A stretch of DNA of 64,000 bases from Eledone cirrhosa (taxonomy: Eukaryota): the NCBI GenBank assembly GCA_964016885.1, contig OZ024740.1:303118001-303182000 (forward strand), given 5' to 3'. The translations under genes and the position numbers were made by a program. The notes under the pieces were generated by a model. It was given only the letters and a program-made list of their open reading frames with translations, made no database searches and was not told the DNA's origin. Below, in pieces: positions 4,636 to 62,774 of the stretch. Within the stretch, counting starts at the first letter, position 1. Each line of letters begins with the position of its first letter.

Positions 4636-4637
<2 letters not shown>

Positions 4638-4825
4638 CGAAGGAAATGCGGTAAGGAACCAGGTGGACCATAACGCACCAAAGTACTCAATACTTAAGGT
4701 AGTAGAGTGGGTAATAGGAATGAGTAGGACCCCAACGGCTGAGCTCAAGCCATTTCGACGGCTAATTCTGGACTGAATTAGCCGTCGAAACGGCTTGAGC
4801 TCAGCCATCGGGGTTCCTACTCGTT

Positions 4826-4830
<5 letters not shown>
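4636..4830 (-). mobile_element. (TA)n-flanked short retroelement fragment with 5' inversion (hairpin 4714-4830), family A
   Basis: 55/56-nt arms around the loop tggact. Contains gtcgaaacggc, resembling the GAAAC half of a hammerhead. Bounded by (TA)n on both sides. Confidence 0.7.
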
Positions 4831-4859: not shown

Positions 4860-5711
4860 AAAGTTTTATTTAAAATTGTTGGGTTACAACGAGTAAATAT
4901 TTTATAACTGATATAAAAGCACTCAACAGTTTTTGGAGTAGGTTTACGATATTAAACAAATGGAAACTATATTTATAAAACCATATTTATTTCGTTATAT
5001 ATATTTCTGGGATATCATATTAAAAATATGGTATGCCTTCTTCAGACAAAATACAATATATAAGCTGTTTTATAAATAATTTTGACATACTTTAGAATAA
5101 TGCAACTTCCATTTAAAAAGTTGATTTGGTAGTGAAACTGTTAAGGACAGTTATAGAAAAAGAAAGACGAAGAAAAACGAAGATAAAAAGAAGAAGATGA
5201 AGAGATGTATGTAAAGAAAAACAACAGAGCGAGATAGAGAGAGATGGAGATATGGGAGAGAGAAATATATTGAGGAAGTGAAAAAATAGTAGGCAGCTTG
5301 GGGACAGATGATCAGCGTACAAGTGAGAGGTTAAGGAGGGAAGGGATACAGTTAAAATAGCCGACACATAAATCACGTCCAGTGTAGAGGAGAAAAAGAA
5401 AGAAAGATGATATATTTAAAATATATTAAAAATATATTATGTCTCATCCGTTTGAGTTATCAATTTTTATGAATTAGGTATTATAATGTAAATATCAGTA
5501 TTCATGAATGAGACACATATCCATAATGTGTGAAGTTGCATAAATGGAAGTTGCATTATTCTAAGGTATGTCAAAATTATTTATAAAACAGCTTATATAT
5601 TGTATTTTGTCTGAGGAAGGCATACCATATTTTTAATATGATATCCCAGAAATATATATAACGAAATAAATATGGTTTTATAAATATAGTTTCCATTTGT
5701 TTAATATCGTA
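4857..5711 (-). mobile_element. Penelope-like non-coding insertion in (TA)n with an inverted 171-bp repeat (4945-5115 / 5541-5711), family B
   Basis: The two arms are reverse complements with 2 differences, and each contains a hammerhead fold. (TA)n on both sides. A related copy is at 59864-59990. Confidence 0.75.
5603..5668 (+). ncRNA. Type I hammerhead ribozyme-like motif (mirror copy on the - strand at 4988-5053)
   Basis: Stem I UAUUUUGU/ACGAAAUA, core CUGAGGA (CUGAAGA in the mirror copy), long stem II GGCAUACCAUAUU/AAUAUGAUAUCCC, GAAA, minimal palindromic stem III, AUA cleavage triplet ending at 5660. Confidence 0.65.
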
Positions 5712-25014: not shown

Positions 25015-25068
<54 letters not shown>

Positions 25069-25082
25069 ATATATATATATTT

Positions 25083-25470
25083 ATTAAAATAACAGATTAA
25101 AGTTTAAGCAAAGAATCGCTGCTTTCACCCTTAACAGGATCTTCTGAAACTAAAAAATCAATCTGTGAACTCAGAAATAAATGTTTCAAAAAACGTTGCA
25201 GCCGAAGGAAAACAGGAAGACAATACTTTGGTTTGTGAAGACGTTCCCTGGCAATGAATGGAAAAAAGCGAAGATGATACGTTGTTATGTGGAGCGATGA
25301 GAACAATTACACGCAAAGACAAACCCCCGTTTATGGTATAAATGGAGTCATTAGACTAATATTCCATTTAGGAAACCGAATGATTCTTGGCTTCAGAGTT
25401 AAGAATAATGTAAATAAATTAGTTGAACGAAAATGGCAGAGGTTATTAAAATCATAAACGCAATAATAAT
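25083..25470 (-). mobile_element. (TA)n-anchored non-coding element with a terminal hammerhead, family C copy 1
   Basis: Aligns over about 290 bp with 60011-60300, and both copies end at the same base against (TA)n. Confidence 0.75.
25092..25166 (-). ncRNA. Extended type I hammerhead-like fold with a variant core (CAGAAGA)
   Basis: ACAGAUUGA-uuuuuu-AGUUU-CAGAAGA-U-CCU guuaa GGG-U-GAAA-GCAG cgauucu UUGC-UU-AAACU-UUAAUCUGU; all three stems pair. Confidence 0.65.
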
Positions 25471-26788
25471 TAAATATATACATACATGCATCTATATACG
25501 TACATACATGTGCATACACGAAAACACCTGCCATGCATGCATATACATGCATGTACACATAAACACGCACACACATACATAAATCCGTGCGACACATGTA
25601 CCCGCACACATACGAACATATACACCAAATACACATAAAAAAATATATATGTGTGTGTATATATACATATAATTATATAAACGTATATAAATATACACAC
25701 ATAAATACGTATATAACACACACACACACATACCTAAAGGTAAATCCACATATGTTCACCAAACGTACGTCAACCAAAACACAATGTACACATATACACA
25801 CCTTACATAAGTGCAAACACACATACACACATACACACACAAACACAAAATACACACATACACATATACCAGTATATATAATATAATATATACACCTATA
25901 ACAAATACAAGCATATATACGTACGAGAAAGTATACGTACCTTCACAAAACATACGGGTAAGGTATACTTACAAATAAGTAATGGTATAAACATAAAATA
26001 TACTTAGCTAACACATCAAGACGTAAATTATCCACGTATTGTTCGTACTATCCGTTAGGGTATAATGTGGAGCTGTAATACAGGAAGGTTTTATGCAATT
26101 TGTGTTTACAAATCATCATGTTTGCTCTAGGGTTCTTATATATTTGAAATATATTTATCCTTATCGAGCCCTCTTTGGATTTTAGTCTTCACATTTATTA
26201 TTATTACTATATATATATATATATTATTCATATATATACAACATATATAATATATGACATATAGTATATGTCATATATTATTATATGCATATATGCCTAG
26301 GACATCTTTTTATGAAGTGTTTGCCCAATGAAAGCTGAACAATTACAGCTCTTGCTAACTAACCACAGTGAATCAGTCACTTTGGATGTTGACTATGCTA
26401 GTTATCACCCATTTATAGTGTTGGCTAGTCAGCTATTGCCTAATTTCCTGTCACACAGTTACTACAGAACCATATATTTCTAATCAACATAATACTCTCT
26501 GCAATACAGAAGTAAATTTAATTCCTATAGTTTTAGAGATTGCTACAGTGGAAAGTATATATGATAATAAACCAAAAGACATTATTTATCATTTTTATTT
26601 ATTAATATGGGAGAAAGATGTAGTGCCATGGTTTCTCTGGAATTTTTAGACTATGAGATTGAGATAACTGTATAATTCTTGCTGAAGAGTATTTGAGGCA
26701 AAAATATGGTTAGATTTGTAATGATACAGCTTTATCGAAAAATGTAGAGTTATTTGGAAAGTATTTTGATATGGGTTTAGATATTTAA

Positions 26789-36720: not shown

Positions 36721-37221
36721 ATTTAAATAGGTCCATGTTTATGTTTACATATACATTTTAAAGAGACCACCTCTTCTACACAATAGACATGTATTTCTTG
36801 CCATATTCCATCTTGGATTTTTTTCAGTGATAATACCTCACTGAAAAACATTGAGTTAGTTGTTATATCAAACAATCTCGTAACATTGTTGATTGCTTAC
36901 AATGAAATTCATTCAACACCAAGCAATGAGTTGTTTATTGTTACATGCAATATGTAAACAAAACTCGTCGTAAATATAATTTTGTTGATACTATTTCATT
37001 GAGTTTTCTTACATTAAATAAATTTGTTCTTGTATACTTATTCATAAGCATTTTTTAAAAAGAAATATCATGGTTTCATACACCAATTGTTGCTAACAAT
37101 ATATTTTCATTATGTTTTAATATAAATATAATTCTAGTATAGTTATATGAATGTATATACATATATATATGCGTGTGTATTGTTATATATTAATATATTT
37201 TCTTGTTATTTTTTTTTTCAG

Positions 37222-37720
37222 GAGCATAAATCCTCCAGTTCAACCCCCTGCAATTGGGAAACCTACAAACCCTAGCAACACGAATGATTACCATGAGACA
37301 CGGCCAAGCTTTACTCCAAGCATTGGCAACACTGAAGATGGCTTTGAAACAGGAACAAATAAATTCCCAGAGACAACCTTTGAGAACTCAGATGATTTGA
37401 ATATTGGTCTGATTGTTGGCATAGCTGCTGGTGTTCTTGTGGCTTTGATAGTTCTTATTATTGCGCTTTATAAATTTCGAAGTCGAGATGAGGGCTCCTA
37501 TAAAATAGATGAGAGCCAGAACTTTGCATACTTGGACTCAAAGCAACAGCAGAGCAACGGAGCATTACTACCTCACAACACCACACCTGGTGGCGGTATA
37601 GGCGGAGGAATAGGTGGTATGGGAGGTATGGGAGGAGGCATGGGTGGTAGCATTGTTAGTGGAGGAGGTGTGGGTGGCAAAAGTGGCAAGAAAAAAGATG
37701 TGAAAGAGTGGTATGTATAA
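37222..37720 (+). CDS. NRXN: Neurexin terminal coding exon: S/T/P-rich stalk, TM helix (IGLIVGIAAGVLVALIVLIIALY), 4.1m motif (KFRSRDEGSYKIDES), Gly-rich insert, PDZ-binding end KKKDVKEWYV*
   Basis: Poly-T acceptor tttcag| in phase 2 with the previous exon. Diagnostic neurexin motifs RDEGSY and KEWYV. TAA at 37718-37720. Confidence 0.96.
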
Positions 37721-55979: not shown

Positions 55980-57610
55980 TGCCATCTTTTGATCTCAATG
56001 GTGTCACTGATAAGCTGAAAGAACCATACACCTCTCTGAGTGCAGATTACAGCAGTTTCACATTGTTGCCATCAGATGCTGCTTGAACTTCATCTGCATT
56101 GTTGTTCCACCAGGTATTTTGCATGGCCCTGAGTTTCACCTGCACCTTTTTTTTTACCTCTCTGTAACGCTCATAATTGTCACTAACAGAGCTACCACCT
56201 TTAAGAACTTAAACTTTTCTGACCAGCAGAGCCTTGACCTCCCGGTCATTCTCATCAAACCAGTCCTTGTGTTTTCTTGTGACAAAGCCAAGGACCTCTT
56301 CTGAAGCCTAATAGACCGAGCTCCTGAAGTCATTCCAATTGTTCGCACAATCAATGCGACGCAGCTCTTCCTTGACACCCTTATCTTTCATACAATCTAT
56401 ATTCAAGTGCTTTGGAATTTTGACACCATTTGCTCTTGTTTGAGGTTTGATCACAAAGTTTCTTCACAAGAACATAGTCGATCAGATGCCACACCTTCGA
56501 CTCAAGGAAGGTGCATCCATGTTGTCTTGAACTTATCCTTTTGCTGGAACATCGTGCTTGCAATGAACAAATCTAACTCCACACACATCTGTAGCAAGAG
56601 GAGACCATTGCTGTTACATTTCCCTATACCATGTCTGCCGATCACATCCGAAGTCTCATAATTCCTGCTAACGTGTGCGTTGAAATCACAAAGTACAACA
56701 ATTTTGTCTGCTGAAGGAATCTTTTAGACAAGTTCCTTCAGAAACCTGTAAAAGGCAAGCTTCTCGACTTCATTGGAGTTCATCGTTGGGGCATATACAC
56801 TGACAATGGTAAGGTATCATGTACATCAGAGGAATTCTCTTGACATGAGACGATCACTGATGCCACTTGGAAACTGGTCAAGTGTCGACACCAAAGACGT
56901 TTTCGCTGCAAAAACCACACCTGCCTCCCTTTTGCCTCCTGCTGCTCTGCCACTCCAGTAAAACGTGTAGCCACTGGACATCTCAGTGATACGACCTTCT
57001 TTGAGTAACCTTGTTTCAGATAAGGCAACAATATCCATATTGTATCGTCTCAGCTCTTTGGCAACAAGAGCTGATCTTCTTTCTGGCCGTGAGTCTGAAG
57101 ACATCAAATCTAATAAGGCCCGGATGTTCCAGCAACCTATATTCATAGGTTTCAACTTCCTCTTCTTTGCAGTGGCAGGATGATGACTGGGCCGATGCTG
57201 CAGTGCCATGGGACACCTGCCGTGCCAGACCCTTTCACCATCAGTTTCAGAGCCCCCATTGCCATTAATTCGTACATTACCATGGTTCATCATAGAATAT
57301 TTATGCCATTTTTGGCTACGGCCAGCCACAATGCAACAAATTATTTGTTCAAATCGATCAGGCGATACCTGTGCTTGAAATTTTTTTGTCTGATGAAAAG
57401 CCTTGCACAGAACTATTCCCACTCTCTGGGCATGGAGAGCATGTACCAAAAAGAAGAACTGGTCAACATCATCGGGTGCCCTCAACACCGCAGATGTTTA
57501 TTCAGAGTTTCCCTCTCCTAGAAAAGTGTTGTTACACCAGCTAAGGGGGCATCTCACTCCTAGCGGGCTATCTGCACGCCTAGGCGCCAACCCAAGTATT
57601 TCCTGTCCCC
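55980..57610 (-). mobile_element. RTE LINE 5' portion: 5' UTR plus AP endonuclease
   Basis: MNIGCWNIRALLD..RPERRSALVAKELRRYNMDIVALSETR..GYTFYWSG and WHLIDYVLV; disabled downstream. Confidence 0.92.
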
Positions 57611-59990: not shown

Positions 59991-60010
59991 ATATATATAT
60001 ATATATATAT

Positions 60011-60354
60011 ATTAAAATAACAAATTAAAGTTTAAGCAAAGAATCGCTGCTTTCACCCTTAACGGGATCTTCTGAAACTAACAAAGTCAATCTGTAAACG
60101 CAGAACTGGATATTTCAAAAAACGTTGCAACCGGAGGAAGACAGGAAGACGATACTTTGGTTCGTGGAAACGTTCGCTGGCAAAGAACGGGAAAGAACGA
60201 ATAATACGTCATTAATAGGAGCGATGAAAAACAATTACGCGCAAAGACAGAACCACGTTTATGGTATAAAAGAGGTCATAGACTAATGTTCTCTTAGGTG
60301 GTGCATAGAGACGTTCTCTGGCAATGAACGAAAAAACGAAGATAATACGTCATA
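60011..60354 (-). mobile_element. (TA)n-anchored hammerhead element, family C copy 2, with an internal partial duplication
   Basis: Homologous to 25083-25370; 60308-60354 repeats 60168-60212. Confidence 0.75.
60020..60095 (-). ncRNA. Extended type I hammerhead-like fold with a variant core (CAGAAGA), second copy
   Basis: ACAGAUUGA-cuuuguu-AGUUU-CAGAAGA-U-CCC guuaa GGG-U-GAAA-GCAG cgauucu UUGC-UU-AAACU-UUAAUUUGU; differences from copy 1 preserve pairing. Confidence 0.65.
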
Positions 60355-60602: not shown

Positions 60603-61467
60603 CATTTTATCTCCAGCCTGTATAGGTTGGCCACTGGTGTAAGAGGGAGTTTGTTGCTGCTGCCCTTAGGTTTCCCTCGTGCTTTGCTCTGGGCTCATCC
60701 GGGATGCTGGATAGCAAGGTGTCGAGATGTTTCTTGAAGACATCCACCTCCACGTCATGCAAATCTCTCATATCCCTCGGCAGCTTGTTGAAGAGTTGAA
60801 GGCCCTTGAATCCCAGGCTATTGTAATACCTGTTCCTTATTCTAGATGTGGAAGACGGGACCTTTGGCACCACACAGTGACGTCCTGTTCGACGGTTGGT
60901 CCAGCTCCCAATGCCAAAGTTTGGTGCTAATCCCTCCAGGATTTTCCACATGTAGATCACTGCGTATCTCTCCCGTCTTCGTTCCAAGGAGTAGAAGTTC
61001 AGTTCCTTTAGCCTCTCCCAGTAGCTTGTCTCCTTCGTCGTGGCAATCCTCTTGGTGTAGCTTCGTTGGATTGCCTCAAGCTCCGTGATTAGTTTGACAC
61101 TATGGGGTGACCACAACTGAGAGCAGTAGTCCAGGCGGCTTAGGACAGATGTCCTCCATAGTGTCAACATGGTGTCTCGGTCTCTTGTCCGGAAAGTCCT
61201 CAAGATCCAGCCAGCGAGTCGGCTGCACATTGTCGTCACTTTCATGATGTGTGAGGAAAAAGATGCATCATGTCTATGCCCAGGTCTCGTATCGATTTTG
61301 ACACGGGGATATCGGTCCCTCCTGGTCCTGTGTAGTTGTGTTGTACTATATTTGTGTTTGCAGGTTTGTTTGGAGGTTTGTATTGTGGGGCTTGGAATTT
61401 GCCCATTTGTATATGGCATCCAGATCTTGTTGTAAAAGGGCAGCGTCAGCCGGGTTTTTGATATCAT
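60603..61467 (-). mobile_element. CR1/L2-like LINE 3' portion
   Basis: LLQQDLDAIYKWA (in another frame), GWILRTF..SRLDYCSQLWSP..LEAIQRSYTK..YWERLKEL..SLERRRER and FKKHLDTLLSSIPDEP. Confidence 0.9.
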
Positions 61468-61772
61468 ATTGTATAATATATTGATATTTTATACCTTATA
61501 TTTTATATTTTATGTTATGGTATTTTACCGTTATTTTATGGTATTATGTTTTTTATTGTATAATGTATTTTTAATTTTTAATTTACGGTTTTGTTTATAT
61601 ATGTATATGTGTAAGCACATGTGTGTGTAGGCAAATATGCATATATGCAGGTGTATGCATGTGGCAGCACGTGTACGTATGCATATATAGATGTATATAT
61701 GTCTGTATGTGCGTAGGTATATGTATGTATATATGTGGCTGTGCGTATGCATGTTAGGTTGTTTTTTGTGTG

Positions 61773-62395: not shown

Positions 62396-62774
62396 CCCCA
62401 CTATCAGGCTAAATAATTTCTTTAATTTCTTTAGTCAAAATACGGCGATAGCTTACATTTCTAATAATTTCAAACCCACTCGCTGTTTCGAAAATATTCT
62501 TACTTGACATTACAGTCGTCAAGTTTATAGCTCCTAATTTGAATGGAAAGAGACGGGTGATGTGTTGGTGTAAATGGTAGCACAGTGGTCCGGATAACCA
62601 AAGATGTGGGTTCGACTCCCATGTACGTCAATACTCATCTTTTCCCATTTCTCCGAGGGTTCTTACCCCCACTATCAGGCTAAATAATTTCTTTAATTTC
62701 TTTAGTCAAAATACGGCGATAGCTTACATTTCTAATAATTTCAAACCCACTCGCTGTTTCGAAAATATTCTTAC

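Follow-up and report, generated by a model that had tools for sequence, protein, structure and literature searches.

The window examined here, a 64-kb stretch of the Eledone cirrhosa genome, carries on its minus strand two copies of a type I hammerhead motif, each close to the 3' end of a 5'-truncated Penelope-like retrotransposon (Table 1). The longer remnant represents the 3' 1.04 kb of the element, namely the last codons of its open reading frame (ORF), a 3' UTR of ~900 nt, the hammerhead and an end that runs into (TA)n, and is accompanied by an inverted piece of the ~100-nt "tail" that comes after the hammerhead in longer copies. The shorter one retains the last 0.3 kb, in which the end of the 3' UTR with an internal repeat is followed by the hammerhead and then by (TA)n. 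Copy 1 probably resides, in antisense orientation, in an intron of a neurexin-like gene; both motifs are antisense to this gene and thus give no sign of taking part in host RNA processing. The window also holds a remnant of a second Hydra-type family (family B), a young MITE-like element, LINE fragments and a tRNA-like match.

Table 1 Features of the window discussed in the text (positions refer to the 64-kb window)
Feature	Position	Strand	Remarks
Head-to-head family B remnant	4637–4830		Between (TA)n runs
MITE-like element	4945–5711		Terminal inverted repeats of 171 nt with 99% complementarity, separated by 425 nt
(TA)n microsatellite	25016–25078		Target, at the 3' end of the copy 1 element
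5'-truncated Hydra-type Penelope-like element	25077–26111	-	89.5% identity over 1060 nt to complete copy L101
Hammerhead copy 1 (subfamily A1a)	25092–25166	-	Type I; predicted cut between 25106 and 25105
Copy 1, extension	25166–25158	-
Copy 1, bulge	25157–25152	-
Copy 1, stem I	25151–25147	-
Copy 1, core positions	25146, 25145, 25106	-	C3, A4 and U17
Remnant of the RT-endonuclease ORF C-terminus	26048–26111	-	From CKH motif to stop codon
Inverted tail piece (93 nt)	26118–26210	+	Typical inverted Penelope junction
Second (TA)n near the copy 1 element	about 26211–26240
Neurexin-like gene, last exon	37151–37720	+	Syndecan domain; C-terminus KDVKEWYV
LINE fragments	60607–61488, 56826–57497	-	RT C-terminus; AP endonuclease start
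Short 5'-truncated copy of the same element	60005–60351	-	86.5% identity over 296 nt to L101
Hammerhead copy 2 (A1b bulge)	60020–60095	-	Predicted cut between 60034 and 60033
Copy 2, core positions	60074, 60073, 60034	-	C3, A4 and U17
Repeated piece inside the short copy	60309–60351
tRNA-like match	62559–62630	+

Candidate hammerheads at the ends of a Hydra-type element

Consistent with the original prediction, made from the letters of the window, a full type I hammerhead can form at both sites and all of its listed parts are present: a 9-bp extension, a bulge and a 5-bp stem I, a CAGAAGA core with a basal U·U, a 3-bp stem II closed by a GUUAA loop, GAAA, a 4-bp stem III and a CUU site. The two copies differ within the motif only in the bulge, by one C>U in stem II and by one C>U in the extension, as had been described, whereas the G·U swaps read at the time as preserving the pairing represent copy-level decay. 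A descriptor that leaves position 4 free matched the window twice, at precisely these copies, and gave 0 matches in 40 order-1 resamples; no hammerhead was found on the opposite strand (the sense strand is fixed, because the ORF of the element sets it) and the complete element contains no second candidate besides the terminal motif. With stem I open, 21 pairs are possible in the three helices around the core, and 98% of the corresponding cells are paired in an alignment of 11 copies. A larger set of 138 distinct aligned copies (166 before overlap removal, gathered by several targeted searches and hence not a random sample) retains C3–G8, G5, A6, A9, G12, A13, A14, A15.1–U16.1 and the NUH triplet each in 134–137 of its members, the triplet of the family being CUU; the Watson–Crick pair 10.1–11.1 is absent and replaced by U·U. 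The motif is therefore real at both sites, as a candidate hammerhead, and its adenine at position 4 makes the predicted ribozyme a variant, not a canonical member, of the type I class.

Nearest-neighbour calculations show that the hammerhead fold is possible, but that it lies above the predicted minimum-energy fold (by 8.6 kcal/mol for copy 1, 3.2 for copy 2 and 2.8–7.5 for four other copies), and the energy model assigns stem II of copy 1 a pairing probability of ~0. The same holds for three canonical families of this genome, designated C, D and E, whose hammerheads are likewise not their minimum-energy folds. The proposed check against the Rfam hammerhead models turned out negative, with no match at E<=10 for copy 1 and no hammerhead among the matches listed for the whole window; a natural copy with U4 is missed at the same threshold as well, so A4 is not the sole reason.

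The two remnants belong to an element with a unit length of ~3.2 kb, and the (TA)n found at the 3' end of its copies bears out the proposal that the motif lies at the end of a (TA)n-targeting retroelement. Longer copies (L091, which contains pLTR and ORF, and the complete copy L101) begin with a truncated upstream repeat bearing a hammerhead, the ~100-nt tail and an ATG, and continue with an ORF of ~700 codons, the ~900-nt 3' UTR, a hammerhead and (TA)n; in partial tandems the ATG falls ~150 nt past the cut site of the upstream hammerhead. This single ORF encodes an RT (YRDD) followed by a C-terminal GIY-YIG-type endonuclease (YIG, E and N motifs). Natural copies contain RWR, DKT, YRDD, CxCX5C, YIG and CxxC-E-N-CxH (the linker CNCRNRVDC fits CxCX5C and the endonuclease reads CDLC..E..N..CKH), while a CCHH motif is absent from the natural ORF pieces; one copy (L023) carries RWR and DKT, where the Hydra-clade criterion is RWK and DKT. 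Because this set of motifs marks the Hydra clade, we assign the element to the Hydra type of Penelope-like retrotransposons; the motif is its type I hammerhead, situated in the pLTR at the 3' terminus. The family shows (TA)n insertion, partial tandems, the tail and truncated copies in inverted orientation, 33 unnamed or hypothetical proteins of 600–950 aa match the ORF at 33–44% and Pfam returned no match for the ORF pieces. A non-LTR retrozyme (tandem non-coding hammerhead units of 150–400 nt) was rejected: the source is a coding element, and its copies are truncated ends at dispersed sites.

Hammerheads are abundant elsewhere in this genome. Families C, D and E are further high-copy families (L201–L230, L426–L455, L087, L114), among which D has a Neptune-like endonuclease upstream of its canonical hammerhead and E, a distant Hydra type with a 2-bp stem II, gives 4,307 exact matches. 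One locus (L139) consists of a 310-nt tandem hammerhead repeat and looks like a retrozyme. The hammerhead-bearing 3' end has in addition been captured and spread by a non-autonomous element with a TC start, a 3' hairpin and a CTAG end (L003, L006, L008, L009, L011, L014, L021, L026), which we take to be Helitron-like.

Adenine at position 4 is the state of the family

Exact-pattern counts with stem I intact in the 3.0-Gb source assembly place A at position 4 in 20,276 of 20,491 copies, U in 85 and C or G in 130, so that, as supposed, the family consensus is A4 rather than U4; 137 of the 138 aligned copies agree. Contigs from two public runs (of unrecorded type and from one sample) show no alternative letter at or above 5% at this position, nor elsewhere in the stems and core except at CpG sites. 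Dropping stem I from the pattern yields 606 exact T4 matches, yet 27 of 30 that were sampled proved to be head-to-head inversion junctions centred on the near-palindromic core, and the 85 U4 copies with stem I intact are scattered across subfamilies. A U4 subfamily was thus rejected, most T4 matches being junction artefacts and the remaining 85 background, as was the apparent canonical sister at L019, which is also a head-to-head inversion junction. We conclude that A4 is a fixed state of the family and not decay from a U4 consensus. Among the matches listed for a loose and noisy pattern, we saw no second family with a fixed A4. Inversion junctions centred in the core occur in family A, to which both copies belong, and in family C (L061–L090, L177), and produce false U4/A4 variants in counts.

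Individual copies decay neutrally: across the 138 copies, 113 pair changes break a pair, 43 still pair through a one-sided change and 1 is two-sided. The covariation anticipated across copies was found in neither the 11- nor the 138-copy alignment, where the stems are invariant between subfamilies and the test consequently has no power. A comparison of three subfamilies (99, 17 and 22 copies) is more informative, as 0 of 55 stem and core columns differ between them against 9 of 23 in loops and 14 of 58 in flanks (0/55 versus 23/81, Fisher p = 2e-6, with the caveats that some of the compared columns had served to define the subfamilies, that the U-run bulge is prone to slippage and that the flanks include three CpG columns, the removal of which gives p = 6e-4). 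This contrast indicates that the structure, including A4, was held through successive amplifications. The unpaired core taken alone changes in 0 of 13 columns (p = 0.03, or 0.06 against the flanks alone), with G5, A6, C3–G8, A9, G12–A14, A15.1–U16.1 and NUH all unchanged, which would only marginally support the idea that catalysis itself is held by selection.

These data largely refute a neutral relic or chance look-alike carried along by one successful master copy, a reading we regard as very improbable. It could account for the lack of covariation and of an Rfam hammerhead match, and part of the copy number does come from the Helitron-like carrier, but the motif sits exactly at the position of Hydra hammerheads, has no chance counterpart in the resamples and is under significant constraint at the subfamily level, and Rfam overlooks the natural U4 copy too.

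The most similar family sampled, family B (47–50% protein identity, 2,149 exact matches), has cores of two kinds: UUGAGAA (U3–A8) in a young burst and CUGAGAAGAU (CUGAGAA, C3·A8) in older subfamilies (7 of 11 rows). The U3–A8 core is already known (Cervera 2014, PMC4209133). Judging from these sequences, A4 could be the former A6 after slippage, since the loss of two bases converts CUGAGAAGAU into CAGAAGAU; alternatively, the central part of the near-palindrome TTC-x-GAA may have flipped. A quick tree of the relatives did not resolve whether families A and B are sisters, and family E was rejected as a canonical parent, its stem II being similar but its protein identity only ~32%. Intact family B copies have a loop II of ~40 nt and a palindromic loop III.

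Element ends and the possible activity of the hammerhead

Had the ribozyme defined the end of the element, as originally proposed, the ends of copies would coincide with the cut. Instead, 3' ends fall 20–30 nt past the cut site, with maxima of 40 copies at +22 and 43 copies at +26, or at ~+125 nt, after the tail, so that cleavage is not what generates the 3' end of the element. Among 30 copies picked solely by the sequence downstream of the site, 1 starts there, truncation within the motif accounts for 25 (17 at 37–49 nt upstream of the cut) and 4 extend further; in a junction-enriched search the ends are spread, and ~8 of ~70 rows, counted by eye, start at the site, 4 of which are explained by microhomology in stem I. 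In neither set do 5' ends clearly accumulate at the cut site. The cut sites of families B, C and D likewise do not coincide with the starts of their incidental copies, so 5' ends do not separate a slow hammerhead from a dead one. Reverse transcription usually ran upstream across the site, as it did in canonical-core families, which indicates that the RNA being copied was uncut or re-joined. Truncations at the 5' side do pile up ~60–75 nt from the inferred RT start (17 of the 30 copies, L270–L299; also in families B and C), yielding thousands of nearly hammerhead-only insertions. Distance or fold-back of the cDNA at the stem ends could be the cause; the hammerhead core was not established as such, because family B stops at a similar distance with its core further upstream.

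We lean slightly towards a terminal hammerhead with A4 fixed throughout the family that would act as a self-cleaving RNA, likely slowed and possibly assisted by protein. The proposed scheme is that the element's own RT would initiate internally on the RNA, immediately beyond the extended stem I, and that a second start would yield the tail, as occurs in vitro with an anole Penelope element, whose RT begins internally at two tail-defining sites with uncut RNA as the main template and whose hammerhead cuts only with protein and is dispensable for insertion in vitro (Frangieh 2024, PMC11167929). Inefficient cutting would from time to time free unit-length RNA from read-through or tandem transcripts and leave most of the element RNA intact as template, which would render U4A tolerable through >20,000 insertions. 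The shift in family B from C3·A8 in older subfamilies to U3–A8 in the young burst suggests that selection still sees the core.

Several observations speak against a slowed ribozyme: there are no compensatory pairs, the constraint on the core alone is marginal and the hammerhead is not the energy minimum. A pairwise scan of an extended hammerhead assigned low activity to all single and double changes in the CUGA turn, the C3G/G8C swap excepted (Roberts 2023), and U4 is nearly universal in relatives. The strongly deleterious effect of U-turn changes in that scan also favours a catalytically dead hammerhead, in which U4A would have abolished cleavage long ago and whose three-way junction is kept as a binding or positioning signal for the element's protein near the RT starts. 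Uncut templates, 3' ends lying 8–12 nt beyond the extended stem, the insertion of the anole element in vitro despite catalytic mutations (Frangieh 2024) and the success of Naiad elements without canonical hammerheads (Craig 2021, PMC8557442) fit such a role too. We nevertheless hold it to be clearly less probable than slowed cleavage, given that the remaining catalytic nucleotides are fixed in the three subfamilies and that the repair to U3–A8 in family B points to selection on geometry relevant to chemistry.

Less probable again is a monomeric ribozyme that cuts fast because docking between the stem I bulge and loop II offsets A4, a reading that we consider unlikely. The closed 4-bp stem III, an extension whose 9 bp are invariant and the customary spacing of the bulge would allow for it, and distal contacts have been proposed to offset variant cores (Perreault 2011, PMC3088659). 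However, no other parts of the motif vary as much as bulge and loop II (7 of 14 columns differ between subfamilies), weak features coincide in it (A4, U·U, CUU and a U-rich stem I), and rapid cutting would strip the 3' end that the copies carry, unless the RNA were re-ligated.

Going beyond slowed cleavage as such, the A4 core might truly cut in a re-registered form, tuned down to keep most of the element RNA whole for internal priming and switched on by the element's own protein, an idea that we rate as doubtful. If it were true, it would represent the first natural U4A ribozyme, surveys based on CUGANGA would be missing whole high-copy families, and two sister lineages would have repaired a damaged core by different routes. 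The roles proposed for hammerheads in Penelope elements range from the processing of tandem RNA to parasitism. A U-turn change accompanied by >20,000 insertions, with the other catalytic bases and the stems kept, constitutes a natural experiment on this question, for which this genome supplies its own controls in the form of natural copies with U4 and sister families with a canonical core: cutting by the A4 motif would imply that the natural sequence space of hammerhead cores is wider than search descriptors allow, and its failure to cut would imply a non-catalytic job for the fold in Penelope transposition.

Comparison with known hammerheads

Like Hydra-clade elements (Craig 2021, PMC8557442), the element carries a type I motif with a closed stem III near its 3' end, inserts into (TA)n and encodes an ORF of ~700 aa with CxCX5C, DKT and CxxC/CxH and without CCHH; its unit is ~3.2 kb, compared with <3 kb in that clade. 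Stem II is short in the Hydra hammerheads listed in File S2 of that work, and a U frequently opens it and, ahead of GAA, another closes it. As U after A9 and U before GAA are common in these rows, the U·U is a trait of the clade, and both it and the terminal position, initially taken as novel, were already present there. All cores listed in File S2 read CUGANGA, in contrast to the A4 found here. The present motif has in addition G15.2–C16.2, CUU and a 9-nt loop III, where Hydra has ACNN..NNGU and loops of 1–3 nt, and its stems are other than those of Hydra-1_oBim, the sole mollusc motif listed. Basal U·U, (TA)n targeting and a 3' hammerhead are thus published Hydra traits, and only A4 is new. 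The expectation that CUGANGA-based searches overlook the motif was borne out for the descriptors used for these elements (Craig 2021), whereas the notion of an overlooked ribozyme family goes too far, the motif being a variant of known Penelope hammerheads that is confined to a single retroelement family. The 76 related metagenomic loci contain 40 hammerheads of the C3 type, of which 39 have U4, one has C4 and none has A4 (reversed controls gave no C3-type match), and families C, D and E have U4. Our literature search, which left some key papers and figures uncovered, found no report of U4A, of CAGAAGA-type cores or of cephalopod Penelope hammerheads.

The resemblance to Poseidon (PAc) of Anolis (Frangieh 2024, PMC11167929) extends to ends and a tail at two positions past the cut and to an uncut template. 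Unlike the predicted motif described here, which lies ~150 nt before the ATG, the PAc hammerhead has a canonical core, has been tested, is assisted by protein and overlaps the ORF start. As with the minimal and U3–A8 Penelope hammerheads (Cervera and De la Pena 2014, PMC4209133), the motif resides in a pLTR, occurs mostly in solo truncated copies and would be expected to have low activity; those hammerheads lack helix III and act as dimers, whereas stem III is closed and non-palindromic in the present case.

In minimal hammerheads, U4 ranks among the core positions that are least sensitive to change. The closest parallels for the core itself are the natural variants collected by Perreault 2011 (PMC3088659), which include U4C (in a viroid), U3–A8, A6C and U10.1–U11.1. 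The natural U4C lowers activity while the viroid remains infectious, and U10.1–U11.1 is tolerated; neither its text nor its text supplements mention U4A, though Fig. 5, S6 and S7 of that work may bear on it, as may the figures of Roberts 2023. Like these variants, the family described here combines a single departure in the core with an otherwise intact catalytic set and a U·U at the base of stem II, but they are rare singletons, whereas A4 is fixed in >20,000 genomic copies.
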